Shown piece by piece: positions 3,846-58,700 of a stretch of DNA of 64,000 nt. Source of the stretch: Dipteris shenzhenensis (taxonomy: Eukaryota); the NCBI GenBank assembly GCA_047967505.1, contig CM106538.1; one strand, 5' to 3'. The notes beneath the pieces were generated by a model. That model searched no databases, was not told the DNA's origin, and saw only the letters and a list, made by a program, of their open reading frames with translations. A program made the position numbers and the translations under genes. Within the stretch, counting starts at the first letter, position 1, and every line of letters starts with the position of its first letter.

Positions 3846-6800
3846 GTAGCCAGAGCTATCTTGAGGGCTTCGAAGGATCTCTAGTCCACTCAAAGACTAC
3901 TAACAACTTGTACAATGAACAGGATATGTCTGTGTAGAATAGGATGAATCTTCGATAGTAACCCATATGACCTGTAAACTATTGCACTCCCTTAGCGTTT
4001 GTGGGGGGAGGCAACTCTAGAATGAGATTGATCTTATTGTAATCCATGGAGATACCATTCTTGGTCACTATGTGACTGAGAATCACGTCGTGTTTGATCC
4101 AAAATTGACACTTGAGAGGATTTAGGGATATCTGATACAACCTGCACCTCTCAAGGACTAGCTTCAAGTATTTCAGATGATCATCCCATCTTGAATTCAC
4201 GCACAAGTCATCCAAGAATTTTTCTATGAAGTCCCTTAGGTACTCCTTGAAGGTGGTGATCATCAGCCATTAAAATGTGGCAAGTGCATTGGTGAGTCCA
4301 AATATCATCACTTTGGCCGCATACACACCCCACTCTATTACAAAGGTAGTTTTATGTTGATCTTCTTAGCCAATGGATACCTGGTTGTAACCCAAAAACC
4401 CATCTAGGAAGCTGTAAGCTTCCTTCCTAGCTACTCTTTCTAGAACATGCTCTGTGAAAGGAAATGGGTAATGGTTGTGCCTTATAGCGACATTGGCCTT
4501 TTTCAAGTCTACACATACTCAGATCTTTCCATTCTTCTTCAGGACTATCACAATGGGTGACACCCAGTCTATATGCTCTATCTCATAGATCAATCATGCA
4601 TCTATGAGTTTTTGGATCTCCTCCCTCACTATGAGCGCATATTTGGGATTCATAGGATAGGGACTCTGTTGCACTGGCTTGATGTCAACTATCATGGGTA
4701 TAGTGTGCTAGACAACTTCAGTGGGCACACCCATCATGTCTGTGTATTTCCAAGCCATGCAGTCCTAGTACTCTCAAAGGAGGGCAATTAAGGTATGCTC
4801 CTCGTTGGGTGTGAGGTCATCTGGTATGTATACCAATTGTGGTTCCGCCCCTACCGGTACCAGGTTCACTTACTTTGGCTAGGCCGTTGTATCCTTGGAA
4901 GCACCCTACTTCGTGGGTTCTCTTGGCCTACTGGTATAAGATTTTGTAGTCCTCTATTGTGTAGGCCTTATAATGAGAAGGTACCTGTCAAAAGGTCCTC
5001 CTTTTCTTCATCCTCCTCCTCTACCCCCTTTTGGGTGGCTTCCTTCTTATCCCTGGTGGAAACCTTCAGACTTTTGGAACTTTGGAGCTTCGGACCTGAA
5101 GGGAGCTCTTCCATGGTACTCATGGATCCAACTGGAGTGGTAGTTCTACTCAGTCGAGATCCCCAATTGGAGGAAAAATCATGGTGAGCAGTTGTGGCAC
5201 CCACATATGTTAGCCAATGGAGGTCTGATTTGACTGCTCCCCTGCTCACCTCGTGGGGTTTGAGCATGTTAAACATTCTGAGGGGCACCATCGTATTCAA
5301 CTGTTCACGCTCAGGGGTTGTTATTTGGAACCCTATTCTTTCTAGGACATCAATGTTTGCTAGAATGTGCATCCAGTTTTGAGAGACCTCTAGATTGGGG
5401 AGAGGGGCATACCAAAACTCATCTGCCTCCTTCCCGTCACATTCATAGTGTTGGATTCCATGGCAAATAGGTGGCCTGACAGTGGGTGGGACTTGTATAT
5501 GCGCAGGTCCACTTGCACGATTTTCTCCTCATGACATAAATAGATGTTGTCCGTGCGCCAATCATATACAAGTCCGGACATTTGGGCCTACTTAGGATGG
5601 CTTCATATCCAGGCTGCTAGGTGAAGTCCATAACCACAAATTGAACGGGGTACGTGAAGCCAAACACCTTAATATTAATACCCGTGAGAACTCCCAAGGG
5701 TTTAGTAGTTCCGTTGTTTGGCTAGCTTTACTATAACAGATGGGTTCGCTCGAGGGAAGTCTTTCCCCACATTTCCCAACATTCTTTGGTGCATACACTC
5801 ACACTAGCTCCCCCATCTATGACGACATCAACCTTTTGGTTTTGATAGGTTATGGGGATAGCTGCATTAGTGTCATCACCTTCGAAGTATTGGCCTAACT
5901 TATTGATGGGGACCTTAGGTAGGTTCCAACCCTTCTCCTATGGTTAGTTGTCTTTGGGGTTGGAACTTGGTAGGACCTTGGGCCAGGATTTGTCCATTCA
6001 TCCTGTTTGAGAGGTCTCGCCAGAGGGTAGGATTCCCCCTTAACAAGGATACAATTGGCATCTTGACCTCTATGGAGAGGAAGGCAACTAACCCAGCAAT
6101 ATCATGTGGTTTGTGAGAGATCTCTCTCCCCACCGATAGTGGCTCCTCAAAGCCGTAGAGGTCTTCCTCCTCTCTTAGGTTCTACAGCACTGGGTCCTCT
6201 TGAAACATCCGTTGCATCAAGTCCAGAACTTCTAAGTTACTGGAGCTAGGTGGTTCCTCTTCTTCCACTCTCTCTGACACCCTAAGTGCCTTTGGCCCCC
6301 TACGAGTAGTCAGCTGGCCAGGGAGGATGGTATCTGACCCTCTGTTGACCTTGAGCCTATGCTTGAATTTCTCTTGGCATACCCATACCAAGTTCTGAGC
6401 GTTTATTAAGTGTTGTTTCTCTAAGGTTGGGTATGGATATGCTCCCTTATAAGATGGTGGAGATGTGAGGTCTTGGGCCTACACTGGCTTGTTTACATCC
6501 ACATATGGGGGCATACTAGGATCGTCCTGGGAAGGGGCTCATTCGCATTTAGAGGCGGTGGCAAGGGTGGTTGTCTCCTCATCTGAATTGTCTTGGATAA
6601 GCACTTGATTCATTCCATCACCCACCCCGGTGAGCTTCTTGGACGGGTTTGTAGGGGCACTTAGGAATTTGAGACATGGGACTCCTGTCCTTCCTTGCCT
6701 GCTTCTTCATTTGCTTGCCTAGGGCCTTTGCATGCATCCTTGTGATGACCTTCAAGGGCACTGCCTCTACTTGGCCTTGTTCAATGCTTGTAAATTGATG

Positions 6801-16769: not shown

Positions 16770-19700
16770 TGAGAGTGCTCTCAACAGAAGTGGAACGGAA
16801 GAGGGAGAGAGAGAAACATAGAGCCACACAAGATTTTGGTGGGTGTAGAACACCCTAATCTTCTTTTTCATTCATTTATATATGTGTTTAAGTATTGTAC
16901 ATAACCGGGGTAAAGGCACACTGACCTTTAACCCCCACAACCTCCCACTAAAAGGACAATGTGCCTTTAAGGAAGAACAACCAGTGAGCATACTATCCAA
17001 TGCCCATCAATACTCAAACCGCTGACTAGGTAGACTCTTCGTCAGCATATATGTAGGGTTATCCTCTGTATGAACCTTGACAAGCTCTATGTGCTTGTCC
17101 TCAAGTACCTCCCTGATGAAATGGTACCTGACCTCAATATGTTTGCTCTTTGCATGAAAGATCGGATTTTGTTTGTGCTAGCTGAATAGCACTCATGGAA
17201 TCACTATCAATGTCGGTACACCTGTATGAATCCCCAAATCTCCCACTAGTCGATCAAGCCATATAGCCTCCTTGCAACCCTCTATTGCTGCAACATACTC
17301 AGCCTCTGTGGTAGACAAAGCAACACACTTCTGTGCATGAGACATCCACGACACTGCACCACCTGCAAAGTTGAACACATAACCAAAAAAGGATCTCCTA
17401 CTATCCACATGCCTTGCATAGTCTGAATCTATATACCCAAGTACACGCATGTCTCCTCTACCAAAGCAAATGCACATCTCCTTGGTACCCTTCATGTACC
17501 TCATGATGCACTTAACTGCCTCCCAATGCCTCTTTCTTGGATTAGCCATATACCAGCTAACAAGTCCCACTCCAAATGCAATGTCTGGTCTAGTAGCTAT
17601 CATACCATACATAAGACTCCCAACCACTGATGCATAAGGAACCTTGGCCATCATGGCCCTCTCCTCATCTGATTTCGGACTATCTGTATGACTCAGTTTC
17701 ACATATGGAGGCAATGGAGTACTTACTGCCTTCCCTCCCTCCATATTGAAACGCCGCAATACTTTTGTAACATACTCCTTCTGTGAAAGTCAAAGGAGTT
17801 TCCCACTCTGATCACGCATGATGCGCATACCAAGAATATGACTTGCAAGTCCCAAATCCTTCATATCAAAGGCCTCATGCAACTTGGACTTTAATGCATC
17901 TAGCTCATAAGTATCCTTGCTAGCCAATAGCATATCATCCACATATAGTGCCAGGAGTATCAGGCTATTATCCTTAGCCCTTTTAGTGTAGAGGCAGTGA
18001 TCAATTTCACTCCTTCTAAAACCCTAGGACCGAATGAAAGCATCAAACTTCTGATACCATTCTCTAGGTGCTTGCTTAAGACCATAGAGACTCTTCTTTA
18101 GCTTGCAAAACTAAATGCTCTTTGCCCTTTTCTTCAAAGCCTTCCGGCTGCACCATGTAAATTTCCTCATGCAGATCCCCATGCAAGAAAGCTGTCTTGA
18201 CATCCATCTGCATAAGCTCCATATCCTCTGTTGCCACTAGGCCAAGCATGCATCTAAGTGTGGTCATCTTCACAATAAGAGAGAAAATCTCATCAAAGTC
18301 CACACCCTTCTCTTGCTTGAACCCTTTAGTGACCAAACGGGCCTTGTACCTAGGCACATCATCACTTGTGACCTTCATCTTGTAGACCCATTTACATGGC
18401 AATGCTTTCATTCCATGTGACAAAGAAACCAAGTCCCAAGTCTTATTCTTCATAAGTGAACTCATCTCTGATTGCATAGCATACTCCCACTTGCGTTGAT
18501 CCTCGCGCATCATAGCCTCTCTGTAGCAAGAAGGCTCCCCGCAATCAGTAAGCATCACATAGTCTACCCCTAGAACAAACCTATCAGGTGATCTAGACAC
18601 TCTAGATGATCTTCTCAAAGGCATTTCATCTTGCTGTCCGACCTACATATCAACCACATTTCGCTCATCATTTCCACCAATAGATGATCCATCATCTACC
18701 GTTGATTGTATACCTATGGGAGTGCTTGGTGGTACCATTTCTTGCACATTTGGTGCATGGATAGCTTGCTGTCTATCAACATATGCAGGTGGATTCACAT
18801 CCTGGAAAGTGATTCTCCTCATTTCCACATCCCTCATGGGTGCCTTATGCATCTTCTTCTCATTGAAGGCTACATCATGGCTGTGTATGATCTTCTTTGC
18901 TTCAAGATCCCAGAGACGATAGCCCATCTCTCCACTTTCACCATAACCCAGAAAGATGCATTTCCTAGACTTATGATCTAGCTTCTTTTGAAGCTCTCTT
19001 TGCACATGTGCATATGCCTCACACCCAAATATACACAAATGAGAGTAAGAGGGCTTCTTACCACTCCATGCCTCTTCAGGAATACCACCATCCAAACTTT
19101 TACTAGGTGATCTATTGATCACGTGCACTGCAGTCTTCATTGCCTCAGCCCAAAAACCACCAGAAAGACTTGCGTTGGAAAGCATACATTGCAACCTTTC
19201 TTGAATGGTATGGTTCATCTTTTCTGCAATTGGATTTTGCTCTAGAGTATGAGGGGATGTGAGCTTCCTCTTAATCCCACATGTATCACAGAAATGCTAA
19301 AAGTCATGAGAGAGAAACTCTCCACCATTGTCAGTTTGTAGGAATTTAAGTGTTCTACGTGACTGATTCTCAACCAAGGCCAACCATTTCTAAAATACCT
19401 AGAACACATCACTCTTTCAAGCTATAGCATAAGCCCACACTTTCCTAGTTGCATCATCAATGAATGTCACATACTATTTAGCCCTGTCTAATGACCGTGT
19501 AGGCATGGGACCACATACGTCTGAATGCACCAAATCAAGCTTTTCAAACTCTTTCTTTCCCCTTCTTTTATGGGCTGATTTAGTTTGCTTCCCATAGAGA
19601 TAGTGCTCATAAATTTCAAAATCAGAGAAACTTAAATGCGGTACATACCCCAAATGGCATAAGAGTTTCATCCCATTTTGGCTCATATGGCCCAACTAGC

Positions 19701-37033: not shown

Positions 37034-40000
37034 GGGGCCTTCTAAACTTCACATGTGTGTTTTTCTCTCTCATCTTCTCCCTTTGTTGAGATTTCGGACT
37101 GGTTTTTCAGCCTCCTTCAGCTGAATTCCGTTTTTCTTCATAACTCCTCACCCGTTTGGATTCCTCAACTTCCGTTTGGCCCAATGGCTTCCCCTCTGCC
37201 TCCCCTTCGTAGTGATATGCTTTTCCCTCCGTGCGTTTGGTAGAACGGGCAGAGCTGAGCACTTCTTTTGCTGGTCGAATTTGCAAAAGTGGCTTTTTCT
37301 GGACCTTTTTTCTTCTACCGCCTCCTGGGCCTCTCCTCTTGCAAAGCTACAGCTTTCTGTTGAATTTCGAGTGGTTCGACGCGCTGGTTGACTGGTTTTT
37401 CTCAGTTTTGGAGGACATTCCGGCGATGAAACTTCTCCAAAACCTTCTCAATGCATTCCTCTCTGAAGCACGCTTCTTTTGAGCCCAAGAACTCCCACTT
37501 CTTCGCGACAGAAGTGTTTCTTTTCGCATTTTTCAGTGGAATTCTTGCTGGTCGGCTCTTGTAAATGCTCTTTCTTCGTGCCTTTGCACTCCTCTTTGGC
37601 TGAGAATGCAATTGGGCATTGGCTACTATGTCCTCTTGGCGATTGAGGACTTGGTTCGAGTCTTCAGGGCTTGGTGAGTTGTGATTTTGCTACTGCAATT
37701 TCTTTTTGCCATAAGCTATTGGTTGGCCTCGTGTGCCGCCTCTTTCTTGGCTCACAGGTGCCCAGGCAGTGCTATATGAGTCATTCTTTGGTTGGGTACT
37801 TTGCTGATTTTATTTTGGAGCTTTGAAAAGCTTTGTGAATGCCATCTGGAAACCACTCAAAGAGAGTGCAACTGGGGTGCAGTGTGATTGCATCTGGACA
37901 GCCAATGGAATTGCACTCGGAAAAGAGAATGCCTTTGGGTTGAGCCTACGGGTTAAGTGCACTTATGTGATGGTGTTATATGCTTGAAAGCCTTGCGAAG
38001 GCTTAGTGAATTGGGGCTGCGTGCTCGATTGCAGGGAAGGTCTCCCAGATGCAACTTGTAATCATTTCACTGTGAAATATAAAGAAATACCGAAAGGGGC
38101 GCCACGGTGTTTGGGGCCAATCGGGTGCACTTGTCTATGTCTGTTGAGCAGGGGCATTCTAGCCTCCATCCCTTTTTCAGTGGTTTTGTTTGTGAACAAA
38201 TGGGTAAATGCCAAATGGTGATCATGCAATGGTTAATGGTTGTGATATATGCTTTGTGAGCTGTAAATAAGTGCTGAAGTGATTAAAGGTTTAGTTCCAC
38301 TGTCCTCTGAGTGATTAGAGGCCGGTTTCATTGGTTCCATTGCCGGGATACCACACACTCGTTCTCAAGAGGTGGGCCTCGGTAGTTTGGTGGAAGGATA
38401 TCTTTGCTGCACTTTTTGACAGCTGAATATTACAACCATAAACATGGTGAGTACCCATGAGCAAGAGAGCTCCACAACTCCTCAAAGGAGAAGGCAGGAA
38501 AGCCTTAACGATCCAGCTAGTGTACAGCTGCAAGAAGCACAACAAATGCCTTTTGAGCAGGCCACACATGAAGCTACAACTGAGCTCAACGGTGATACTA
38601 GTTCTAGCAGTGAGTCAGATGATGCTACTATGTTGAATGCACAGCTTGCAAGTGCAGTGACTGCTTTGACTCAGCTGGCTCAAAATTTGGCTCAGATTGT
38701 GCAAACAAATGCCAAGAAGAAGAAGAAATCAAGAAAGCACAAGCAGAGAAAGAGTGAGTACACACATGCATCAGCTTCTCATGGCGGACCGCACACTCAT
38801 GCATCAGTTTCCCATGAGGGACAGCCATCTAAAATGACTCAGAAAGTGACTTCCAAGAGAGAGGAATCGCCCAAAAGAGCACTTAAGAAAGAGGTACAAA
38901 AAGTACAGCCAGTGCAACAGTATGAGCAGCCAGCACAAGGCCTTGGTTTGGGTATTTCTACTCCTCAAAATAATAATGTGCAGTCCATAAATGTGGCTCA
39001 ACCACCTCAGCCATATTTGAGGCAGCAACCTGAATATTTTGGTACAGATTCGATCTTTGATGCTATGTTGATTTCACCGCCAATTGGGCATAGAAAACAA
39101 GTCATGTATGACAATGTGGGAGCCAAGCATGGCTCTCCCTAGTGAAGGGAATGCTGCAAATATACAGCCATCTTTGGGACAGCCAATATCAAATGTATAT
39201 AAAGAATTTAAGGATGGTGGTTCTCATGTCAAGTTTGATACATATAATGGAGTACGGGACAGGTACAAAGCCCTCACATTCCTTCAACAGTTTGATGCTG
39301 CATTTCTTGGGGGTTTGTTTACAGAAGCATCCAAGATGAGGAAGGTTGCCACATTTTTGAAAGGCAATGCACTTAAGTGGTACACCAACCTTATGCTTCA
39401 TGGAGATGCACCTACTACTTGGCTGGAATTTAAGCAAGTGTTCTCTTCTACTTGGCTTACTCCAACTTTTGAAGTTGAAGTACTTTCACACTGGCATGAC
39501 TTGTCATACAAACTTTGCAAGAATCTTGATGATTACACCCAGAGGTTTTGGGATGTTTTGCTGCCATTGAGCTCTTACAGGCATGTTTCTTTGAAAGAGC
39601 AAATAGAGAGGTACTGTTGTGGATTGCCTAGTGAGCTACGTGATTATTGCATCAAAACCAAGGTGGGTTCTATAACTCAATTAATTGAGAATGCAAGGAC
39701 AGCATATGCATGGATGCAGGAGAAGAATTTGGGCTTTATGGACAGCAAGAAAGAAGACAACAAACGGGCTGCCAAACACCAAGATAAGGACATCAAATCT
39801 GAAAATAAAAATTATGACAAACGACCGTTTCAAAAGGGAGGAAAAGCCCAATTCAAAGCTGGTCAAAGGCGTGGACAGCCTAATAAACAGCCCCGTACCA
39901 AGTTATCTGATGAAGAGAAAAAGTCACTCATGGAGCAAAACAAATGTTTTATATGCAAAGGAGAGGGACACCGCTCTTATGATTGCCCATTCAAGAAAAG

Positions 40001-43000
40001 AGACAGGTCACATGATGATAAGAATGGTGATAAACAGGCTGATCGGAAGGGCAAAAAGCCTAAACCTTCTGCAGGACTTCTTCCAGATGTGATAGGGAGT
40101 TTGCCACATGCACATGATGAAGAGGAAATGAAAAAGACTGAGATGTGCAGAGCATGGGGAAAAATCAGAAATCAAAATTGTTTGTTTTTCTTTGATTCTG
40201 GGACAAAGGCAAATTTCATAACTCCTGATATGGCAGGAAGGCTTGGCATTGAGCCTGAGGAAATGGGGCCATCCGGCATGTGTGATATGGCCAACCCTGA
40301 ACTCAACACACCTGTCACTCCTATCATTGGCAAGTTGAGGATGCATATCCAGGGATATCAGGATGCAGAGGACTTCTACATTATGCCTTTGCCAGAGTGT
40401 GATGCTTTGCTTGGGATGCCTTGGATGTACAGGGTGGGGGCTGATGTGCAGATGAGAAACAAGAAGATTTCTTTAACTCATAGAGGCAAAAATCATGTAC
40501 TTGATGTAAATTTGAAAGGGGAGTCCATCCCTCTAGTTTCAGCTTCTTGTATTTCCAATGTAATAAAGCGTCATATTTCAGCGTACTTGATTTTTGTCAA
40601 AGAGGACAGCCAACCAGTTCAGGAAGGTTCTACTCTTTCTGCTTTAGATAGAGAAAGGGCTGCTTTTATTTCAGATTTTCAGGATTGTTTCTCAGATGCA
40701 CTTCCTCAAGAATTACCTCCCAAGAGGCCCGAGGATCATCAAATTGATTCTTGGAAAAGGAATTAATACAGCCAAGTAATTCTCCTTACTGTTCCCCTGT
40801 GTTGCTTGTGCAAAAGAAGGATGGCAGTTGGAGAATGTGTATTGATTATAGGGCTTTGAATAAAGTCACAATTAAGAACCGTTTTCCAATTCCACGCATT
40901 GATGATATATTGGATCGGTTGGAAGGTCCCTCAATGTTCAGTCGTATTGACCTTAAAAGTGGATACCATCAGATAAGGATACGGCCTGAAGATGTCTACA
41001 AGACTGCCTTCCGCACTTCATTTGGCTTATATGAGTTCCTTGTGATGCCTTTTGGTTTGACTAATGCACCTGCCACTTTCAATAGAATGATGGACAGAAT
41101 TTTTAGAGCACACAGAAAGTTTGTGGGCACTTTCTTCGATGACATCATTGTGTTCTCTAAAAATGAGCAGGAGCACAGGAAACACCTCACTATTGTGTTT
41201 CAAGAATAAACACCAAGAAAAGTGAGTTCTTTATGCATGAGATTCATTTTCTCGGTCATATAGTGTCAAAGGATGGAGTCAAGATGGATCCTGCAAAAGT
41301 TGAGGCCATGAGGAGTTGGCCAATTTTGAAAAATCTGCATGAAGTCAGAAGCTTTCTTGGGTTTTGTTCATACTATCGGAGGTTTATAAAGTACTTTGCA
41401 GAAATTGCTTCTCCCTTGCATGCTTTACAAAAGAAAGCTGTACCGTTTCGGTGGGGACCAAAGGAAAATGCAGCTTTTGAAGAGCTGAAGCAAAAGTTGT
41501 GTTCTGAACCCGTTATTATCTTGCCAGATCTTGCAAAACCCTTTGCTGTAACTTGTGATGCATGTGGAAACAGCATAGGAGGCACTTTGATGCAGGATGG
41601 CAGAGTGGTTGCATATGAGAGTAGAGTTCTCAAAGATGCTGAATTGTACTTGCAGATATACGAGAAGGAAATGTTAGCAGTGATACATGCTTTGACCACA
41701 TGGAAACATTACCTTCTTGGAGCTGATTTTTATGTGCAGACAGATCATCAGTCACTTAGATATTTTCTCACGCAGAGAAAATTATCTGAAAAGCACATGA
41801 GATGGGCTAACTTCCTCTCAATGTTTCATTTTCAAATTGTACATGTGCCGGGTAACAAAAATGTCATGGCTGATGCACTTTCCAGGAAACCACAGCCTGA
41901 AGCAGTCTCCAAGAAACCCAGTGTTTCAGCAGTGAGCATTGCTTACAACAATGTGTTAGATGTGATGAAAGATCAGTATGTTAATGACGTTGATTTTTCA
42001 GCTATTTATGAACGGCTTTCTGATGGTCAAAGGCATGATCACTATATGTTGAAAGAGGGTTTCATTTTGATGCATGGACGACTCTGTGTCACTGATCAGA
42101 TGCGACAAAAAGTCATAATGGAAAGTCATGCTCCTCCATATGCAGGACATAGGGGAATTACAGCAACAATTACAGCAGTGGAGCAATACTTTTATTGGCC
42201 ATCTTTGAGGAAAGATGTGGAAGAATATGTGAGAACATGCATGGTTTGTCAGAAAGTAAAGTTTGACAGGCAGAAGGCACCTGGGTTGTTACACCCTTTG
42301 CCAATTCCGGATAGACCATGGCAAAGCATAGCTATGGATTTTGTGTATGATCTTCCACGTACTCCTACTGGACATGATGGATTGTGGACAATAATTTGCA
42401 GGTTTAGCAAACAAGCCCACTTTGTGCCAGTAAGAAAGAAAATTACAGCAGATCAAATGGCCAAATTGTTTTTGCAGCATGTCTTTAAGTATCATGGGAT
42501 GCCTGAATCCATAATCAGTGATAGAGATCCAAGGATGACCAGCCTCTTTTGGAGAGGACTGTTTGAAAATATGGGCACTACGCTGAATTTTTCGTCATCT
42601 TTTCACCCTCAGTCTGATGGACAATCGGAGCAGGAAAACTCTACCATCTTGGATATGTTTAAATGCTATGTCTCAGACCACAAAAGCAAATGGGAGCATT
42701 ATTTACCTTTGCTGGAATATGCTTACAATAATACGGTGCACACATCCACAGGTAAAGCACCTTTTGAAATAGTGGAAGGTGCTAGGAAGATACCTCCCAT
42801 TTTGCATACAAAAGAGAAAATCTTCGAAGCTGATCGTTTTGTGGAAAGCCTTGAAGAGGCTTACAAGAAGATCAAATATGCCTTGCAAAGAAGTCAAGTG
42901 CTGCGTTTTCAGAAGGCAAGGCTGAAAAATAAGAAAGGCAAGGAAAGGTTGCACACAAAGCTGAACATGCGTTACTATGGTCCTTTCCAGGTTTCTGAAA

Positions 43001-45339
43001 AGATAAACGAGGTAGCTTATAGGCTGAAGTTGCCTCCGCATTGGAAGATACATAATGCCTTTCATGTGAGCTTACTAAAGCAATATCATGGAGATATTCC
43101 CGAGGATGTATCTGATGAGGTGCAGCCTGAAGTGGAAGAACAGGATGAACTTCTGGTCCCAGAGCAGATTCTGGCACACAGAGATAGAAAGCTCAAGGGT
43201 AAAGTTATCCGTCGCTACTTGGTAAAATTTCAAAATTACCCATCACTTGATGCGAAATGGATGGAGGAAGGTGAACTCGCAGATTCACCTGGGATATTGC
43301 AGCTTTACCTTGATGCTTTCCAATTAGAGCCGACTGCGGTCCGGGCTCCTACAGGTAGTTCAGCAGAGCGAGCGTCTGGAGCATTACCTGATGTTCGAGA
43401 GGGGGGTAGCACCTCCACTCCCTCAGTACAGACGGGAACTCACTAAGATTTCATCAGGTCGCTTGATGACACTGTATGTTTCATCCGAGATACTGAGCTG
43501 ACAGTATTTCTGCTGTGAGACTTCATGATATTGATGCATCTTGACTATTGATCGCCGAGGATCACATAGATTTTGAGTAGTATATATGGATGGATGCATG
43601 CCTCTCCTAGCCATATTTTTACTATCTCTGTATACTATAGCTGCGGCTTTCTTGTATACTCTTTTATGCTATATTTCATGCTCGCTCCTGTGTTTTGGGG
43701 CAGCAAACTGTGGTTTGCTGTTTCAAGAGAGGGGTATGTCACGGGGGCGTGAAATTCTAGGTACTTTAATGTACTACAAGACCGTGACAACTTTGGTTTT
43801 AAAAGTCCAAGCGTGGGCTTAATAATGTGTAATTAAACGCGGCATGGTGCCTAGCACATAAGCGTAATTAATCCCTAGGCCCAAAGGCATTCCAAGGAAT
43901 TAAAAGAGTGGTTGTTGGGAAATGATGACGTGGCATTTTTAATGGGCCCCCTAGAGGGCCATGTACCTTCAGTGGCCCCCCTAGAGTTCCAGGTGGCTCT
44001 AGTGCCTTCTACATGCTCCTTTGCCATTCTTGGACCTTCCTGGGCCTTCTAAACTTCACATGTGTGGTTTTCTCTCTCATCTTCTCCCTTTGTTGAGATT
44101 TTGGACTGGTTTTTCAGCCTCCTTCAGCTGAATTCCGTTTTTCTTCATAACTCCTCACCCGTTTAGATTCCTCGACTTCCGTTTGGCCCGATGGCTTCCC
44201 CTCTGCCTCCCCTTCGTAGTGATATGCTTTTCCCTCCGTGCGTTTGGTAGAACGGGCAGAGCTGAGCACTTCTTTTGCTGGTCGAATTTGCAAAAGTGGC
44301 TTTTTCTGGACCTTTTTTCTTCTACCGCCTCCTGGGCCTCTCCTCTTGCAAAGCTACAGCTTTCTGTTGAATTTCGAGTGGTTTGACGCGCTGGTTGACT
44401 GGTTTTTCTCAGTTTTGGAGGACATTCCGGCGATGAAACTTCTCCAAAACCTTCTCAATGCATTCCTCTCTGAAGCACGCTTCTTTTGAGCCCAAGAACT
44501 CCCACTTCTTCGTGACAGAAGTGTTTCTTTTCGCATTTTTCAGTGGAATTCTTGCTGGTCGGCTCTTGTAAATGCTCTTTCTTCGTGCCTTTGCACTCCT
44601 CTATGGCTGAGAATGCAATTGGGCATTGGCTACTATGTCCTCTTGGCGATTGAGGACTTGGTTCGAGTCTTCAGGGCTTGGTGAGTTGTGATTTTGCTAT
44701 TGCAATTTCTTTTTGCCATAAGCTATTGGTTGGCCTCGTGTGCCGCGTCTTTCTTGGCTCACAGGTGCCCAGGCAGTGCTATATGAGTCATTCTTTGGTT
44801 GGGTACTTTGCTGATTTTATTTTGGAGCTTTGAAAAGCTTTGTGAATGCCATCTGGAAACCACTCAAAGAGAGTGCAGCTGGGGTGCACTGTGTGATTGC
44901 ATCTGGACAGCCAATGGAATTGCACTCGGAAAAGAGAATGCCTTTGGGTTGAGCCTACGGGTTAAGTGCACTTATGTGATGGTGTTATATGCTTGAAAGC
45001 CTTGCGAAGGCTTAGTGAATTGGGGCTGCGTGCTCGATTGCAGGGAAGGTCTCCCAGATGCAACTTGTAATCATTTCACTGTGAAATATAAAGAAATACC
45101 GAAAGGGGCGCCACGGTGTTTGGGGCCAATCGGGTGCACTTGTCTATGTCTGTTGAGCAGGGGCATTCTAGCCTCCATCCCTTTTTCAGTGGTTTTGTTT
45201 GTGAACAAATGGGTAAATGCCAAATGGTGATCATGCAATGGTTAATGGTTGTGATATATGCTTTGTGAGCTGTAAATAAGTGCTGAAGTGATTAAAGGTT
45301 TAGTTCCACTGCCCTCTGAGTGATTAGAGGCCGGTTTCA
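37034..45339 (+). mobile_element. Young Ty3/gypsy chromovirus with long LTRs and tRNA-Glu PBS
   Basis: 5' LTR 37034-38330 (lacks the first ~305 bp) is nearly identical to 3' LTR 43737-45339; PBS TGGTTCCATTGCCGGGA at 38332; PPT GAGAGGGG before 43737. Confidence 0.95.
38444..43446 (+). pseudogene. gag-pol polyprotein (gag, zinc knuckle, protease, RT, RNase H, integrase, chromodomain), broken by a frameshift and small deletions
   Basis: [49 protein letters not shown] and PEQILAHR...YLVKFQNY...AKW motifs across four ORF pieces. Confidence 0.93.
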
Positions 45340-48510: not shown

Positions 48511-49568
48511 TGTGACCTAGGTTAGGGCGTAGGCAACCCGACTCCAAAAAACATTGTTCCACGTGACCTACAATGCTGACAAGCTGAAATGCAATATACA
48601 TAAGAATATTATCCGTAGATCTAGATAACCTGCCCCAACATGAACATCAAAGACCAAGGCATCCCCGTTTGACCCTCATAGTCCCACAACTTGAAGTCGG
48701 ATCCTTACAAGAACTTGTATTATTGTGCTGAACTCCTTGTCCTAGGCATACTTGCCTTTAAAGGGGTCCAGATATGTCAACAAAAAGTGTAGTGACTAGT
48801 ATAGCGAAGGCTAGGGGTGACCCGCCAAGGGCATCTGCAACCACATTGTTGAATGCACCTAATGGTGATATGAAAGTTGGCCAGAGATTCTAACTAGCGT
48901 GCTTGTCGAGCATTCATGACTCACTGAGTAAAGATATACTTCAGCGAGTAATGATACATTTTTACCACGACATGGCTCCCATGAGATTATGTTTTCATGT
49001 GCTGTAAGCATGTCCAATCGCCCGCAACTCTTTATCATACACCAAATACCTAGACGATGTCACAATGTTTATTGGTGTCGAATGTCAAAACTTTGCTTGT
49101 TGCATCAAGCTTGCTCCAGTAGCAATAATTTATCACCTCAAATGGATGATTCGGGTCAGTAAGATCCATGATCCATGTCTTGTAAGTGCCTACTCTATTG
49201 CTGGATACTATACTATGTTTGTAGTAGCCACGAAAAAGCTGCGCCTACTCTATTGCTGGATACTATACTATGTTTGTAGTAGCCACAAAAAAGCTGTGCT
49301 TTTCAATCTCTGATATAACTTGGTAAGATAGAAGTTTGCCAAATTACCGAAAAAAGCATACATCATGAATATTCCTTGAAGTCTTTATCATACACTAAAT
49401 ACCTAGATGATGTCACAATATACCTTTGTAAGACTAGAATAAGTCCAATCATACAAATTTAGAATTTTTTTTTGTTCTAAAGATCAAAAATCTACAAAGA
49501 AAATAAAAGAGAAAATGAAAGAGAAGAAAAAAGAGGTAAACAAAAACTTTTATGAAAAGCAAAAGGAA

Positions 49569-49691
49569 GACATACTTAGCAAGCAAAGCAACACTTATGT
49601 CGTCATCAGTGCCCAAGCATAAGCAGCTATACTGGGTTTCTAAAGACCCGCGGAGTCTCTTGGGCAAACCCAGTGCTTGCTAAAATACGTC
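49569..49691 (-). ncRNA. Candidate pseudoknotted (ribozyme-like) RNA structure in the PLE 3' UTR
   Basis: Outer stem 49576-85/49674-83; crossing stems 49610-17/49659-66 and 49631-38/49667-74; hairpin 49644-58; CUGAUGA on the sense strand at 49603-49609. Confidence 0.55.
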
Positions 49692-49797
49692 AAATAAACA
49701 AAAGAGAATGAAAACAAGAAATAAAGAAGAAACGAAGCAGGTGACTTAAGCAAAAATAAACAAGCAAGTCAAGAAACAAAAACTTCCAAAAAACTAG

Positions 49798-49799
<2 letters not shown>

Positions 49800-49831
<32 letters not shown>
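49800..49831. repeat. (TC)n microsatellite in the PLE 3' UTR
   Basis: Perfect dinucleotide run. Confidence 0.9.
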
Positions 49832-49835
<4 letters not shown>

Positions 49836-49949
49836 AAAACACAAAAAGTTAAAAGGCACTTTACACTTATGTCTCGTTTCTGCAAAGAGGCAAAAATACA
49901 TTTCTAACTTAGAAAGCACAAGTATACTCAAGCAAACTCTCTTTTGAAA

Positions 49950-52152
49950 CTAAAAGAAAAACGGGCTATTCAGCTCCCCGCTTTTTGTTTTCAGCTTAAG
50001 TTCAATCATTCTAAACAAACCTAAGGCCGAAACACCATAGATAAAAGACTTCATATCTAAGAATGTGCGAACTTTTTTCATTATTTTCCTTGGATTATAC
50101 CTCTTGTGTAATAGTAAAGTGATCAAATTACTACAATGAGTGATAAAAGACTCCTTAGTTGTACAAAGGCGGGAAAATCTATGGAATTGGGAAGAAATGA
50201 CTCCATATTTTGCCAAATCAGAAATGTTTGAGTCAATGTGAGGCATTTTTATAATGTGTAAACCACTATATTCAGGTTGTTCACGTTTATCGTATATATC
50301 AACCTCTAATCCTATGGTAGAATGAGAAAGTCTAAGATCTAAGAAAACACAAGAATCCCCTTTTGAAGTGCAGTTCAGTTCACAAGAGTCACGAGGATAG
50401 ATTCCTTCTCCAAAAGCTCTAGCGTCTTTGTACATAAAGTCTTGAAAGTTAGGAACATCTGGTACAAATAAATCATCTATAAAACGCCTAACTTGACTAA
50501 GCTTATGTAAAATGATAGGGCAGGTATTGATAGAAATAAGACGTTGCATAAACTCAAATTCATAAGTGAAAAGATAAAAGTTTGCTAAAAAGACGGCACA
50601 ATTAGTGCCCATGGGGATTCCTATAACTTGTTGAAACAAAGAATCACCTATTGTGATGTAAAGATTATCTAAAAGAAAATCTATCCAAGAGCAAACATCT
50701 TCTACACTTACTACCTTTGTGTATCTTTTCTTTTTAGAACCTATGTCATGATCTTTATTTTTTAGCCACAAAAAGTCAAAGCATAAGGCTGTTTTCTCAA
50801 CTTTTAGCACTTTGCATCTATCTTTGTCAAATCTCAGCTTGAAAACTTCAGCCACTAGCTTTTTAATTCTAAACTTCAGGTCTTCCAGCTCAATCTTTGT
50901 GTAAAGCGTCGTAAAATCATAGGTTTGAAGGAGAATAGGAGACTCTTTTTCCTGAATGCTTCGAGAGGAATTAAAAAATTTTACAACAGGAATCACTCCT
51001 ACAGAGTCATTTAAAATCCAGCTTGAGTTCGAGGGGACATCTGCCTCTTTTAATAAGTCCCTCCAAAGTTCATGGACACTAGGCAACATGGCTTTGAAGC
51101 AGTAGCTTAGCCATTTAGAGATATTCGTCAAAGTAGTCTCACAAGCAGCTGCAATAAATCTTGGCTTTTTTGGAGTTTTGTGAAACTTCCAAGCAGCACA
51201 AAGAAAAGGTATGCTTGGATTGCAAACAAACCCAGAAGACTTACAAAAACTCTGATGTTTTGAGATCAAATCTTTTTGAGAAACTAAGGCGGGGGCGTAA
51301 GTTTTGGCAGACGAGTTCACTTCTCTCAAAAGACATTCTAAGTAAAACTTTTTGCAAATAAAAACAAAGTTATTGGAACATTTGTCCACATAAGAAATGA
51401 CAAAATTCCTATGGAATTTTCGAAGAAGAGTTTCATCTTCTTTCGAAAGATGGTTACTTTTCTTTGAGCAAATAACCGAAGGGACTTCTTCTAGTTTCAA
51501 AGTAACTTTCTTCAAAATCTTCCCCTTCCATTCTGATAAGATATTTTTAACTCCTAAACATTCTTCTAATTGCAAAACAAACTTTGAGATTCCCTTATCG
51601 ATAGCTTTTAAAAGGCAAGACTCTTTAAAAGAGTACAATCGAAATTTTGTGCCTTTCATGAAAAGGTCTCTTAGGTTACTAGAAAGCAAAATTGAGGTAT
51701 CAGTTGTGACTACATGTCCTAAATCAGCATCAATAAAGCTTTGGAATCTCTTACTTTTACAACAACAAGGTTCTTTAAGGATAGAAGATTTTGAATGCTC
51801 TGAAAGCCTTTTACCTATCTCTCCATAGTTGAAAGCCTTTTGTCCTAAAGTTTTTACATACTTCCAAGCTACTACTGGATGCTTCCAAATTCTTCTCACA
51901 AAACGAGGGAGAGAATCCATTACTTCAGGAGACTTCAAAATGGAGTTTAAGCCTATCTTGTCAAGTGAGGGAGAAGTAAAAATACAAATCAAGAGTTCCT
52001 TATTTAGATAGACTTCTTTGCTTTGAAATGAAGCTTTTACTTTTAAGAAGCGATCCAACGAAGTTTTAAGTTGTATATAATGGAGCTTATTTAGATTCAA
52101 ATCCTCAAAAGAGAAGTTTTCCAAGGTGTATTGAAGTTTAAAAAGAACTTTG
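49950..52152 (-). CDS. Penelope-like reverse transcriptase; frame open to the 5' truncation point, no ATG start, no endonuclease domain in this copy
   Basis: KFHKTPKKPRFIAA, TYDFTTLYTKI, QVIGIPMGTNCAVFLAN, RRFIDDLF, VFLDL, IYDKR and thumb YGVISSQFHRFSRLC; linker PCCC...GHVVTTD. Confidence 0.9.
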
Positions 52153-52765
52153 ACCTAGATGATGTCACAATGTTTATTGGTGTCGAATGTCAAAACTTTG
52201 CTTGTTGCATCAAGCTTGCTCCAGTAGCAATCTCGGAAGCATCATTTATCACCTCAAATGGATGATTCGGGTCAATAAGAGCCACGATCCACGTCTTGTA
52301 AGTGCCTACTCTACTGCTGGATACTATACTATGTTTGTAGTAGCCACAAAAAAGCTGTGCTTTTCAATCTCTGATATAACTTGGTAAGACAGAAGTCTGC
52401 CAAATTACCGAAAAAAGCATACATCATGAATATTCCTTGAAGTCAGCTAGTTGCGGATTATCACGATCGTCTTGGGATTTACTATCATGCCTCCAAAGAA
52501 ATAACATGTCCCAAATGCTCCAGGATGGTGCGAAAAAATTAAGTCTTTTCAACATTGATGTAGAGCAAATTCTTCTCTAAAAACATTAAATTCCTGTCAG
52601 AGATGTTGGTTGTGTTCAATCAAGGATCTCTTGAAAACCAGAATGTCATTTAATAGATCATTAAAAACTTATCCAGCCATGGCTGAAAGATGTCGTTCAT
52701 TAATGTCATCAATGTGGCCAGGGCATTAATAAACCCACAAGGCATGACTAAACAATCATAGTATC

Positions 52766-55700
52766 TGTATTTTGTGCAAAAGATCACTCATTCAAGGGCT
52801 CGCAGGTGGGGAGGTGACAAGTCTAATCCAACACCCCCAATCTGACCCACTGTGGGCCACAGTCTGTCACATGAACCCCTTATGTCAGGTGCATAGTGAC
52901 ACATCTGACTGGCTCAGACCGAGGACCTCTGTCCAGAGAAGGGAAGAACAGCAGCGGAACGAGGCCATTCAAAGCCCAAGAGCAGGGCAACACAGTTGCC
53001 ATACAGGGGCCCTTCAGTCCGAGCAGATCTGGTCAGACCAGGGCAGTCAACCGACCAGCCAGGTCGGCCTAACCTGGTCAGTCAACTGTCTGACCCAGTC
53101 AGGCCAGATCAAGGCTATATAAGGTGCCTCAGCCCCCCATTTCAGTCACACAGTTTCGGGGCCAGTTCTCTTGTAGAGAAGGGGTAGGGACAGATTTGGA
53201 GAAAGGGGGATAGAGGAGCAGAAGGGAGAGACAGAGAGAGGGGAAGAGGGAGGGAAAAGGGTAGGAGAGAGAGAATGAAGTAGGACAGAGAGGGAGAGAT
53301 TGAGACGGAGTGGGGAAGAGAGAGAGAGAGAGTGAGCGAGCGTAGGCAGGAAGGAGGAAGGGAGAGTAGATGGAATTAGATGTCACATCAAAAAGTACAT
53401 AGTAGGGGGTGGATGGAGACTTATATAGTCCCTCCACATTCCCCCCCTAAAAGGCCTCTAACTTGGCCTCTTTTTCCCCTTCATTACAGCCATCCCTTAA
53501 CATAGAATTTTTCCCTCAAAATTTCATATGCGGGCTGTTAAATAGGTGCAGCAAACAGCAAATAATAATCAGTCCGGTAGGAGATAGGGGTTGTCCTGGA
53601 CAATGCTCTCTGGCTGCCATGAGTTCTCATCCTCAGGGAGTCCTTGCCACTTGATAAGATACTCGGTGTACTCTTTGTTTTGGAGTACATGATCCCTGAA
53701 ACCCATGATGCACTCCAGAACATAGAGTATGTGGCCCTCCTCATCCATAGGTGGTAGCTCAGGAAGAACTTGGGCATGCTGTCCAACATGTGCCTTCAGC
53801 AAGGACACATGGAAAACATTATGAATCCTGGAGGTCCTAGGTAGCTCCAACTCATACACCACCTCGCCAACTTTGCGGATGATCCTGTAGGGACCGTAAT
53901 ACTTGTGAGCAAGCTTCATGTTGGTGTTACCCTTCAGCGAGGCATAACGGTTCTTATGGAGGCGTAAGTGCACATAATCCCCTTCTTCAAAAGACAGATA
54001 CCTCCTACGTTCATCCGCATACTTCTTCTCCTTGGCTTGGGCATCTTGCATTTTCTTTTTAGCCAATTGCAGAAAGGCATCCATACTCTCCAAGTCATTT
54101 CTTGCTTGCTGATTTTTCACAGCCATGTCTACAACTATGGCATACCCACTCTGTAACCATACATAGCCTCGAATGGGCTCATGCCAATAGAGATGTGCTT
54201 GGTACTGTTGTAACAAAATTCAGCAAGTGCCAACCACTTATCCCAAGACTTCTATGTGTCATGACAGAAATGCCTATAATACTCCTCCAGCCATTTGTTC
54301 ACCCTTTCTGACTGTCCATCCGTCTCAGGGTGGTAAGCAGTGCTAGGTGTAAGAGAAGTACCCACTGCTGTAAATAATTCCTGCCAAAAGTGACGCATAA
54401 ATTTCTGTCTCGCTGACAATCTCCTGAGGGCAACCATGATGCTTAAATACATGCTCACTGAACTGTCAAGCAGCCTGTGATGCTGAATAACGGTCTTAGT
54501 GGGTATGAAATGGGCCTGCTTTGACATTCTGTCAACCACCACAAAAATGCTATCCCATCCCCGCTCTATGGAAGGCAACCCTGTGATGAAATCCATAGCA
54601 ATGTGAGTCCATTTGCCTTCTGGAATAGGTAATGGCTGCAAGAAACCCGCGGGTAACCGGCTGTCCACTTTATTTTGCTGGCAGGGCAAACATTCATTGA
54701 CAAATTTAACTACATCCCGCCACAAGCCATCCCAAATAAAGCTCTGTTTGAACTTTTCATATGTCTTAGTAATACCAGCATGTCCTGCCATAGGAGATGA
54801 ATGCATTTCCTGTAAGACCAGCAGTCGGTACTTTGAATCTGGCACCAAATAAATTCTGTCCTTGCACCACAACAGCACCACAACAGCCCATTATGCAGCT
54901 TAAATTCAGCATGCCCCTGGCTCGATGGCCTCTGTAACTCCACAAATATGGAAGTTGCCTTAGAATCCTGCATGTATTCTTCCTGAATACCATGAATCCA
55001 CTCCTGGTAGATGGTAGAAATGGCAAACAAACTGCAAGCCCACATATGGGATAAGGCATCTGCAACCACGTTTTCTTTCCCTTTCCTGTACTCGATGTCG
55101 AAATCATAAGATTGAACCTTAGCCAGCCATCTCTTCTGCTTCATTGACAAGTTCGGCTGCGTAAGGAAGTACCTGAGTGTCCTATGATCTGTCTTAACCT
55201 TGATTTTGCTACCATACCGGTAGTGGTGCCATTTTTAGAAAGCATGGATGGAGGATAGCCAACATTTCCTGATCATACACATGATAATCTAGTTCCTTGG
55301 CATCCAATTTCCTGCTTTCAAAAGCAATTACCCCGTGTTCCTATCTTAGCATAGCCCCTAATCCTTTGCCACTGGCATCTACCTCTACAATGAAAGTACG
55401 TGAAAAATCAGGGCATACCAACACAGGAGCATGAGTGAGGGCAAATTTCAGGTCTTCAAAGCTGCGCTATGCATCTGTAGACCACATAAAAGCATCCTTC
55501 TTCAAAAGGTCTGTCAGAAGGGGCTGCCCTCTTGGCAAACTTGCGAATAAAGCGCCTGTAGAAGGAAGCAAGACCTAGGAATCCCCTCAACTGAGTAGGG
55601 TTGTGTGGCTGCGGCCAATCCTCAATGCATTTCACCTTTGCAGGATCCACTCAAATGCCAGAGCTCAAATCTGATGATAGCCGGAGCTCAAATCAATGTT

Positions 55701-58700
55701 AGTGGAAAACTGAGCACTCTTGAGTTCATCCAACAGGTCATCTATCCTGGGAAATGGAAACCTGTTTTTTATGGTGACCTTATTCAAGTCTCTATAGTCA
55801 ATGCACAGACGGTAAGAACCATCCTTCTTTTTCACCAGGAGTACAGGGGATGCAAAAGGAGAAGTGCTATGAGTGATGAAACTCTTCTGAAGTAAGTCCC
55901 TCACTTGAGTTGCCACTTCTTCCCATTCTACCTTAGAGAGTCGGTATGGGGCCTTATTGATTGGCTTACTGCTAGGTTCCAAGACTATGGCATGATCTAC
56001 ATCTCTTCTCAGAGGCAACTGTGATGGCAAATCAGCAAACACATCTGCAAACTCTGAGAGCAATCTCTGCATATCACAATCATCAACACGGGGAGTGCCA
56101 CCCTCTTTAGTTACTTACACATTTAATGCATATACGGCGCTGCCCCTCTTGAGCTCTCTGGCCAACTGCCTTGCTGAAATGACCTGCAATTTAGGAGCTG
56201 TAATACCATGCAATGTAACTGATCCATCCTTGTGGACAAAGCTGAGTGTTAAGGCATTAAAATCCATGCTGATTTTTCCCAATGATTGCAACCAATCACA
56301 GCCCAAGACAACATCTATTGGGCCCATGTCAATTGCCAAGAGATCACCTGCAAATGTATAGTCATCAGAGAACTTAATCCTTGCATCTTGGCAACAAGAT
56401 CTGCTGATCATATGTTGTCCATTGGCCACTTCTACTCTCAGCCCATGGTCTCAGTAGCAATCAGTCCAACCCTCTGTAAGGTCTTGTAGTTAACAAAATT
56501 GTGGGTGCTACCACTGTCCACATGCACAATCCTCCCATTAATCATCCCTGTTAATCTGATAGTATCAGCACTTTTGGCACCCATCAAGGCATGCATGGAA
56601 ATAGTATAAAGTGTTGGCTGAGCATCCCAATAAACCTCACCCTCGTTCACGGGAGCATTACCACTTGCATCTTCACGTGCATAAAAAGGTACCGCATCCT
56701 AATGCTCCACAGAAAAGAGTGTTGGCCTACAGCCTCTCATGCCACCAGTGGGCAGAATATCATACAAATGCGAAGCATGAGTGTCATGCGCAGTCGCACC
56801 ACCAGGATCAAAAGGCAAGTCGGTGCCCTTCGTGGCTCTAGTGTCAAAAGCCTCATCTGCATCATGTGTATTTGCCATCTCATCCTGAGACGTATCCAAA
56901 GAACCTGGGGCATCAAACAATTCCTCGTCATCTGAGAGGTTAATGATCATGCTAAGTTTGGCAGCACCATTGTTGCGCATCTTGCACACATTCCTATGCT
57001 CAGGAGTCCATTTCTCGCCACATTTAAAACTTTCTGCTGTCCATTATTGCCCATGTATGCTGTTTTATGTCAACCTGCTCATTTCCAGCAATAGGCTTGC
57101 CTCCAGGCTTGGCATCAGGATACTTGTAAGGCCTGGCATACGGCATCTTACTACCCGAGATAGTAGGAAAGCGAGGAAATGGTGCTGCTGCAAATTTCTT
57201 GTCAGTCCACTCAACAAACTTACCCCATAGCATGCGAGCTGCCCATGGCATTTCTGTGCTTGCCAGCATATTTAGGCTCGAATACTTCTGCAAGCTGAGC
57301 TGCCCTCTCAATTGTTTGAGGGTTATGTGCCTTCACATCTGCAGTGAGAGAAGAACTTAACCCATGGATGAAATGCAACAGCTTTCCCTTTACACATACA
57401 TCGTGCACAAACAGGGAAAGCCTCCAAAAGCGTTGCAAGTACTCTTGGACCGTACCGGTCTCTGACAAGGCATAAAATTCAGCCAAGTATTGATCCAATA
57501 CAAGTGGAGATACAAATGTAGTGACCATCAATTCTTTGAAACCCCTCCAAGTGGTTGGTTTCTGAGGCGAATCCCTCAAGCGGAAATAGTCTTCCAGCTT
57601 CGTGAGCCACTCCTCCAACTCATTGGGAGTGCGAGTGTCCCCTTTAAATTTATGCACTGTGAGTTTGTCCTTCATATCCTTGGCTGCATAATTCTTGTGT
57701 GTGTGACCTCCAAAAGTGCAGGCATCATCACGCTTGAGGTTCACATAATCGGAGAAGGACATCTCAAGTTTGATGGCCTCAGGTAGGGCCCTGTAAGAAC
57801 GCAAAGAATCTGCCAACATGTCATCAAAAGTGGCTTGTTGCCCACCACCAACCCCCTACTGCGTAGAAGCTGCTACCATCTGATGCACTGGCTGTGTCTG
57901 GCTATATGTGCTCGCTGGCGGAGCGATAGGTGCATGAACTCTGGGCTGGGTCTCTCTACCAAATGCATCTCTTCGAAATGATGGCATACCAAAGGGCTGA
58001 GAAGAGGACTGACCTCTCTCCCAAGGGTGTGAGCTGCCATATAAACCCAAGCCAACTCCAGGCATACTCGCTGGTGTGGTGAAAGGAGCACTAGCCGGAG
58101 AACACCAACGCCTCGGCCCAAAAGAGACGGCTCAGCCTGTATAGATGCAGAAATCTAAGAGCCAAAAGATGGCCTGACATCCTACAAGAAGGTACTCTGT
58201 GGCATAGAAAATGCATCATCTATGTCCAGATAATCCCCAAGCTGGGGTACATGCAATGGTCCAGAAGACTGATGCTCATAGGCACGACAGGCATCTGCCA
58301 TAAAACCCCTGCGTGGAGCAGACAAAACATCCTGACTGTTTGAATGGTCCCCTTACTAGGGTGCGGGCTGCTTACCCTTATCCTGCATAGCAATGGCAGA
58401 TGTGATCTGCTGACCAATCTGATGTCCCATTTGGACAAGAGCCGTATCATGCATAGTCATGGCTGTGGTAAGCTGCTGGCTGAACTCCTGTCCTATCTCG
58501 TGGAAAGCACCCTAGAGCATCGAGGAAAGAGCATCCAGAAACTATGTCTGTGCTGCTTGCACTTCTCGGGATGCAGGAGAGAGGCTGAGTGAAAGGAACC
58601 TCTGCACCACCAATGGATGCAACCACTGTGGCAGGCACTTGCTCATACTGAGCAGCCTCATCAGAGTCATGCGATATATCACGAGGAACCGCTTCGGTGC

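Follow-up and report, generated by a model that had tools for sequence, protein, structure and literature searches.

Canonical hammerhead ribozymes of Penelope-like retroelements (PLEs) are circular type I motifs with the block order C-G-S; their helix III is often minimal, in which case dimers are required (PMC4209133). Naiad elements and most Chlamys elements, two subclades excepted, are stated to be without canonical hammerheads; nine Naiads are flagged ‘HHR_core’ and eight ‘HHR_half_core’ (PMC8557442). Non-circular permutations were first reported in 2023 (Eckert et al., PMC10085705), the order S-G-C (HRIMA-1 and the SGC variants) from metatranscriptomes, with none in genomes of known organisms, and the order CSG from two metagenome sequences, in neither case with a host or a genetic context. 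Type SGC with its I helix cleaves in vitro at 0.007–0.13 per min, and the published search pattern for it consists of CGAAA, CUGAUGA(U)G, a stem II of 2–6 bp and a linker of 0–8 nt (PMC10085705).

Here we compare these systems with a structured island in the 3' UTR of a PLE that lies in the window, i.e., the whole 64-kb stretch of DNA that was analyzed. Judging from its letters and those of its relatives, the island is almost certainly a hammerhead-derived conserved fold. It is also probably a hammerhead ribozyme, non-circularly permuted in the order S-G-C, which selection has maintained in the 3' UTR of a Penelope element of Chlamys-like type. On this identification a hammerhead of the order SGC, whose cut site can be predicted precisely, would belong to a retrotransposon in the genomic DNA of a eukaryote. 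This would also offer an answer to a stated puzzle, namely that Naiad and Chlamys elements are without canonical hammerheads yet contain unfitted ‘core’ and ‘half core’ words (PMC8557442). In the literature searched, a non-circular hammerhead is reported neither from a retroelement nor from a plant genome (subscription papers and bioRxiv supplements may mention one), and the accessible text of a 2026 retrozyme preprint and of PMC13725137 makes no mention of one.

Fold and block order of the island

The sense strand of the island is the minus strand, on which it lies (49691-49569) 260–380 nt 3' of a 734-aa open reading frame. A sequence-only reading of the window had described a GC-richer island in the UTR, in which one continuous strand pairs in turn with four partners and which contains hammerhead core words, and all of this is borne out. 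The GC content is 47%, compared with 23% and 31% in the flanks, and the island folds on the minus strand with z = −4.3, none of 200 shuffles folding equally well. In the pair list the strand 49691-49653 pairs successively with all four partners: the closing helix P0 (Table 1), a stem III of 7 bp (49674-49668 with 49631-49637), a stem I that crosses stem III (49666-49659 with 49610-49617), and the hairpin P2 (49660-49653 with 49642-49649). A fifth helix of 8 bp, the I helix (49625-49618 with 49592-49599), had been missed.

Along the sense strand the order is thus stem III strand, U16.1, U17 and stem I strand; the hairpin; an A, GAAA and the second stem III strand; a linker; an I helix strand, the second stem I strand, CUGAUGA, three bases and the other I helix strand, with P0 enclosing everything. 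CUGAUGA (49609-49603) directly follows the 5–8 bp of stem I, as expected for CUGANGA, and GAAA (49640-49637) leads into the 7-bp stem III with the pair A15.1-U16.1. The N-U-H cut site stands between stems III and I and is GUU in the window copy; the predicted cut would fall 3' of 49667, between 49667 and 49666. All 12 scored core positions are consistent with the hammerhead consensus, with the blocks ordered S-G-C. Since this order is unreachable by circular permutation, the permutation is a non-circular one.

Table 1. Positions of the motif, of its host element and of the neighboring features in the window
Feature	Positions	Strand	Remarks
Closing helix P0, 5' strand	49675..49691	-	7 + 8 bp; adjoins stem III; 49691-49685 pair with 49569-49575, 49682-49675 with 49577-49584
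Closing helix P0, 3' strand	49569..49584	-	
Block S	49662..49674	-	stem III strand 49674-49668 (U16.1 = 49668); H17 = U 49667; stem I strand 49666-49662 (extendable to 49659)
Inserted hairpin P2	49642..49660	-	8 bp with a loop of 3 nt; separates stem I from block G; last two bases can alternatively form a 2-bp stem II
Block G	49631..49641	-	A11.1 49641; G12-A13-A14-A15.1 49640-49637; stem III strand 49637-49631
I helix, 5' strand	49618..49625	-	in type SGC the I helix ties stems I and II
Block C	49600..49617	-	stem I strand 49614-49610 (extendable to 49617); C3-A9 CUGAUGA 49609-49603; 10.1-10.3 = 49602-49600
I helix, 3' strand	49592..49599	-	
Penelope-like retroelement, Naiad/Chlamys type	49420..52152	-	5'-truncated; from truncation point to 3' end; bounded by 19-bp direct repeat
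Open reading frame, 734 aa (P0001)	49950..52154	-	CxC-like motif, RT and thumb; N-terminal endonuclease lost via truncation
Target-site duplication, 5' copy	52153..52171	-	19 bp
Target-site duplication, 3' copy	49401..49419	-	19 bp
Hairpin within last codons of frame	49960..49985	-	z −2.0; counterpart in L001 at ~3668-3698, z −0.9, weak
3'-terminal hairpin right before element end	49425..49457	-	z −3.2; counterpart with different letters in L012 at ~4556-4586, z −2.5

We searched with a descriptor that takes the three hammerhead blocks in any order and leaves stem II optional, and obtained a single match on both strands of the 64-kb window, the island motif. Under strict thresholds (stem I at least 5, stem III at least 6, fifth helix at least 7), which were chosen after the motif was seen, dinucleotide shuffles gave a match in 0/20000 cases for the island and in 10/20000 for the 527-nt UTR, the latter becoming 0/20000 when stem I was set to at least 8. 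Rfam, the search of which had been proposed together with the sequence-only reading, gave no match anywhere in the window at gathering thresholds; with the limit relaxed to E 10, the UTR of the window (both strands) and L012 showed chance-level matches only, none of them of the hammerhead or HDV type. The canonical minimal type I hammerhead of PLEs (C-G-S, no pseudoknot) was accordingly rejected, the order being different and an Rfam hammerhead match being absent.

The motif has several properties in common with type SGC (PMC10085705): the blocks come in the order S-G-C, stem I crosses stem III, the I helix connects the far side of stem I to that of stem II, the core is conserved and, in the related family described below, stem I has 5 bp. 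It differs in that it lacks the pair G10.1-C11.1 and has a stem II of at most 2 bp under a mismatch, in that an 18-nt hairpin takes the place of a linker of approximately 3 nt, in that the I helix lies only 3 nt from A9 and an additional closing helix is present, and in that it stands in the DNA of a eukaryotic retrotransposon and not in metatranscriptomes. Comparing the published SGC pattern by eye with the window pair list, we find an A before GAAA, a C after CUGAUGA and an 18-nt linker, none of which fits. With the order of type SGC and a stem II that fails its pattern, the window motif is most probably a hammerhead variant rather than a member of type SGC. The sequence-only reading had set the motif apart from canonical hammerheads, rightly as regards the absence of the C-G-S order and the deficient stem II (at most two pairs); what it had called a wrong strand order is the order already described for type SGC (PMC10085705). 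For the same reason its proposal of a variant or new self-cleaving motif holds for the variant and not for a new ribozyme class.

With canonical PLE hammerheads the motif shares its place in the 3' UTR, upstream of the element end, and the extra nucleotides atop stem II (PMC4209133; PMC8557442 File S2), whereas it is unlike them in having a pseudoknot and a complete stem III, and in its deficient stem II. With the pseudoknot hammerhead (Zhan et al., 2024, PMC11300833) and with pistol it shares that the role of helix II is taken by another helical element. Membership in either group was rejected by the text and construct of PMC11300833: the pseudoknot hammerhead has CUGAUGA before GAAA and keeps G10.1-C11.1, whereas in the window motif GAAA comes first and the pair is absent.

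Stem II of hammerheads is closed by a pair at 10.1-11.1. This pair is usually G-C, but is a C.A mismatch in the window and A.A in the related family, where 44/48 copies have A at 10.1 and 46/48 have A at 11.1. Below the mismatch two pairs are possible, G-U and A-U in the window and G-C and U-G in the related family. Because the related family is mismatched at the same place, we reject the explanation that the mismatch is a decay of the window copy. It also has a precedent in PLEs, since a canonical hammerhead predicted for PLE-X1_cBra has the same extra C and A atop stem II (PMC8557442 File S2). The bases of the possible 2-bp stem II can close hairpin P2 instead, both forms being compatible with the data, and the extension of stem I competes with P2 for 49660-49659. 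A further competing fold is possible in the window copy through pairing of U17 with A14 and of U1.1 with A13; in a nested model this fold is 3.3 kcal/mol more stable, and it would block the core. GUU is a weaker hammerhead cut site than GUC, a difference of which the searched text of PMC1636495 makes no mention, and since GUU allows this blocking fold the window copy may be slow.

The host element

The retroelement runs from 52152 to approximately 49420 and is inserted inside a Gypsy-like fragment. Its target-site duplications can be recognized; for the PLE group with an N-terminal endonuclease such duplications were often not discernible to Craig et al. (PMC8557442). The fragment interrupted by the insertion, a Gypsy-like RT/RNase H sequence (49026-49419 and 52153-52444), is tandemly duplicated, with an internal 41-bp repeat. 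Elsewhere in the window there are ordinary frames of Gypsy-type LTR retrotransposons with a chromodomain integrase, plus a frame with a retroviral-type SH3 domain (38420-43446 on the plus strand, 53569-57855 and 18643-19296 on the minus strand).

Pfam gives no match for the 734-aa frame. Its best named relative is a Ceratopteris richardii protein with 63% identity; other relatives are unnamed proteins with 40–65% identity, and a further set has 22–29%. A profile built from this last set, several members of which have an N-terminal GIY-YIG domain, matches the frame with E 6e-135. Judged by these relatives, the host is probably a fern. The GIY-YIG domain is also found upstream of the RT in full-length copies of the related family (L001, L010, L015, L065 and L006); in L001 it was detected with a home-made profile (E 1e-7), and the translation is without Cys pairs, i.e., without Zn-finger cysteines. 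The combination that characterizes Chlamys, an N-terminal GIY-YIG without CCHH Zn fingers, is thus present in the related family, the window copy being truncated before the domain. By the domain pattern of Craig et al. (2021), and with the likeness to Chlamys-1_cBra judged by eye, the window element looks Chlamys-like. Because full-length relatives have the N-terminal GIY-YIG, we reject an assignment to the endonuclease-less PLE-X1 type, which is also disfavored by the RT motifs of Selaginella PLE-X1, different by eye. The element thus shares with Chlamys and Naiad PLEs the N-terminal GIY-YIG of its full-length relatives, the absence of Zn fingers (as in Chlamys) and a CxC-like motif; unlike these elements as published, which the text searched there does not describe from ferns, the window family carries a probable permuted hammerhead (PMC8557442).

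As regards a pseudo-LTR or tandem arrangement as in Chlamys, there is no second UTR copy within the 64-kb window. In L001 and L010, degraded UTR copies upstream of the start of the frame are older and divergent. The 3' end of the element is sharp and common to many copies, which stop approximately 250–300 nt beyond the predicted cut site. The 3'-terminal hairpin, which both families have directly before the element end (AAAG-G/A then TA), is a candidate RT-binding or initiation signal.

Among viral contigs no relative of the element was found with either of two alignments, and a collection of prokaryote genomes gave distant PLE contigs only. The contigs L081-L090, within three prokaryote genome records (G001, G002 and G003), carry eukaryotic Penelope-like RTs and are probably contamination. 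The descriptor has no match in L085-L090, L007 and L013, eight contigs of which only L086-L089 extend well past the end of the frame.

Conservation in a related family and in closer relatives

A scan of metagenome contigs confirmed 270 relatives, the best 80 of which were analyzed. These are mostly 39–58% identical (one short contig reaches 64%), and the family has approximately 50% protein identity to the window element. Of the 80, 58 extend to the C-terminal part of the frame, leaving 46 UTRs after short and identical ones were removed. The descriptor finds the order SGC in 17/46 of these distinct UTRs and another order in 3, while 29/46 no longer fit it through decay or truncation. By comparison, approximately 890 kb outside the UTRs (both strands) contain three descriptor matches at 5/5, one of which is a true UTR copy. 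An upstream match in L031 was set aside as background.

The related family agrees with the window motif in block order and in spacing: in both, U16.1 and G12 are 28 nt apart and a spacer of 3 nt separates A9 from the I helix. In a plain sequence alignment of the window motif to L001 the blocks fall out of register, so that a structural comparison is needed; we ran it from the core outward. For the five helices (III, I, P2, the I helix and P0) 33/33 pairs are standard in both families, in line with the pseudoknot that the sequence-only reading had placed in the 3' UTR of a PLE. The covariation check proposed with that reading also comes out in its favor: 18 of the 33 pairs have changed on both sides between the families, with 2 changed on one side and 13 unchanged, a hand count in hand-set registers from two families only, i.e., two data points and not a statistical test. 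At the P0 site the related family has a 10-bp helix with different letters. The counterpart of P2 has 5 bp, with 4/5 pairs changed on both sides among the copies of the family. The I helix has 8 bp in the window and 7 bp in the related family, where 4/7 pairs have changed on both sides between the families and only one-sided variation is found among the 48 related-family copies.

Counts at the level of these 48 distinct copies likewise exceed shuffles. Overall 90% of the helix cells pair, compared with 32–55% in slid controls. Cells changed on both sides number 30, as against 12 ± 3 in shuffles (0/500 reach the observed value), and pairs with a two-sided change number 12 (reached in 9/500 shuffles), both counts being uncorrected for relatedness; 11 of the 30 cells represent one inherited change in P0. 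The core is conserved at the level of single positions, with CUGANGA kept in 44–48 copies per position and GAAA in 45–48, and in the cut-site triplet H17 is C (GUC) in 44 copies and U in 3, with a gap in 1. The 12 core positions show 20 changes where 67 would be expected from the same bases elsewhere (column-permutation P 0.0002, uncorrected for relatedness). In particular, the catalytically important G5, G8, G12, U16.1 and H17 are kept between families whose helices have been rewritten, and are the least variable among the copies. A covariance model built from related-family copies only ranked the window motif first in the 64 kb, with a rough E of approximately 0.04 and three blocks in register.

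Two additional linker hairpins are present in L012, at ~4312-4345 (between stem III and the I helix) and ~4372-4400 (before P0), the window motif having neither; by eye, one of them shows a G-C to A-U swap between subfamilies. Older, divergent UTR copies also occur apart from the matched frame (L009:4184-4327, L053:1508-1650, L035:6468-6623, L046:2407-2564, L024:6031-6193, L043:287-435 and L079:1820-1962). Two of these seven stray copies stand directly behind the 3' end of a younger copy, and they are possibly short non-autonomous derivatives or insertions into earlier copies.

Closer relatives were obtained as contigs from 4 of 16 listed sequencing runs, with four organism labels, and aligned to the UTR. 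One of these runs, X1, may represent the window's own species. In run X9 the depth is high at 49581-49684 but falls almost to zero in the A-rich 3' flank. Among the differences listed, the X9 majority keeps the pairs at 49688 (G-U to A-U) and 49634 (G-C to G-U), and the change at 49679 (C-G to U-G), which also keeps its pair, occurs in all four runs. Within the I helix, 49593 goes from G-U to G-C in most of X9, and the X9 majority change at 49592, among the differences listed, would lose the terminal G-U unless its partner changes too. In run X6, G5 is changed to A in about half of the depth (3 contigs).

Mechanism, alternatives and the wider group of elements

In the mechanism that we propose, stems I and III would fold across each other and so bring CUGAUGA, GAAA and the N-U-H site into a standard core. 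Hammerhead chemistry uses G12 as the base and the 2'-OH of G8 as the acid, acting on the bond after position 17. Helix II would be split, its GAAA side held by the inserted hairpin P2 and its CUGAUGA side by the I helix, with the two halves joined by at most two pairs under the C.A or A.A mismatch. The strands that normally belong to helix II would be held by P2 and the I helix, each anchored to the far end of stem I, and the closing helix P0 would clamp the knot. The family is likely to self-cleave at the predicted site; for the window copy with its GUU site we lean slightly toward expecting measurable self-cleavage there. The likely role, proposed also for other PLE hammerheads (PMC4209133), would be the cutting of transcripts that are read-through, multimeric or tandem. 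Because inserted copies keep the approximately 250–300 nt beyond the cut site, uncut RNA would serve as the template for insertion, as in the Anolis element (PMC11167929).

The same retention of sequence 3' of the cut would also be expected if the fold, derived from a hammerhead, cleaved very slowly or not at all and now served as a site for RT binding or positioning or as a decay barrier. The loss of helix II would then mark the loss of catalysis, which fits the missing G10.1-C11.1 pair and, in the window copy, the GUU site with its blocking alternative pairing. Likewise, the Anolis PLE inserts in vitro without needing hammerhead cleavage, but its motif is nevertheless cleavage-active (PMC11167929). 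The fold may have an RT-binding role, but such a role would not by itself explain why the catalytic nucleotides G5 to H17 are conserved between the families and least variable among copies while the helices are rewritten, and we consider it unlikely that the fold has ceased to cleave. Cleavage could also depend on help, either from a dimer or tandem transcript that supplies helix II or resolves the blocking fold, or from a protein chaperone. Such help has been proposed for minimal PLE hammerheads, which have no activity as monomers and little as dimers (PMC4209133), and the stem II deficit common to both families would be in keeping with it. However, helix II would not be restored in a dimer, as an identical second copy brings the same mismatch; a single copy contains the whole of stems I and III, and the window holds no second copy of the UTR. 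Assisted cleavage therefore appears quite improbable.

Least probable is that the island represents a ribozyme other than a hammerhead, HDV-like or otherwise, or that a repeat-rich UTR has produced the arrangement by chance. The sequence-only reading had likened a loop to L3 of HDV, and its letters are indeed present, but the likeness is not conserved: the loop is different in the related family and varies among the related runs, at the loop positions 49650, 49652 and 49653, and in Rfam neither strand matches an HDV-type model with E up to 10. Similarly, looser descriptor thresholds (4/4, no fifth helix) match 166/5000 UTR shuffles, whereas none of 20000 shuffles of the island passes the strict ones, and the same architecture is found in an independent family.

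If, as we prefer to think, the motif is a permuted hammerhead that cleaves, it would do so without G10.1-C11.1 and would widen the tolerance of the hammerhead fold; genome-wide hammerhead counts from circular descriptors would then be too low. It also suggests that a branch of PLEs has ribozymes missed by earlier searches. In this regard we looked at six published Naiad records, chosen for their core or half-core flags, of which the last approximately 600 letters were judged by eye. Four of the six 3' ends (Naiad_Parc, Naiad-2_Nbra, Naiad-3_Nbra and the record before Naiad_Lpol) read in this way as complete type-CSG hammerheads, all four having GUC as the cut site, an I helix and a stem II closed by G-C. 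The record before Naiad-4_Dst has, by eye, A-GAAA, an I-like helix and CUGACGA, with a 3-nt spacer as in the window and no complete S block, and that before Naiad-4_Chem shows no hammerhead motif by eye. No such motif was seen in the three Chara records, the Selaginella PLE-X1_sMoe UTR or the distant contigs, so it is not universal in the group. On these readings it seems an evenly balanced proposition that PLEs with an N-terminal endonuclease are not without hammerheads, and that many of theirs are non-circular and hence invisible to canonical descriptors: CSG in animal Naiads, and, in the window's Chlamys-like family, an active SGC form with a new architecture, in which an inserted hairpin and a core-proximal I helix divide helix II between them. 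If true, retrotransposons would be a principal genomic location for permutations otherwise known from environmental sequence alone.

Two further observations concern the published records themselves. The ‘HHRs’ listed for Selaginella PLE-X1_sMoe and PLE-X1_sTam (PMC8557442 File S2) are located in the 5' coding region; they are flagged there as deviating, and we consider them doubtful. The 3' ends of the three Chara records (PMC8557442 supplement) share a GC-rich, structured-looking motif of approximately 100 nt without hammerhead core words, which may be another ribozyme type.
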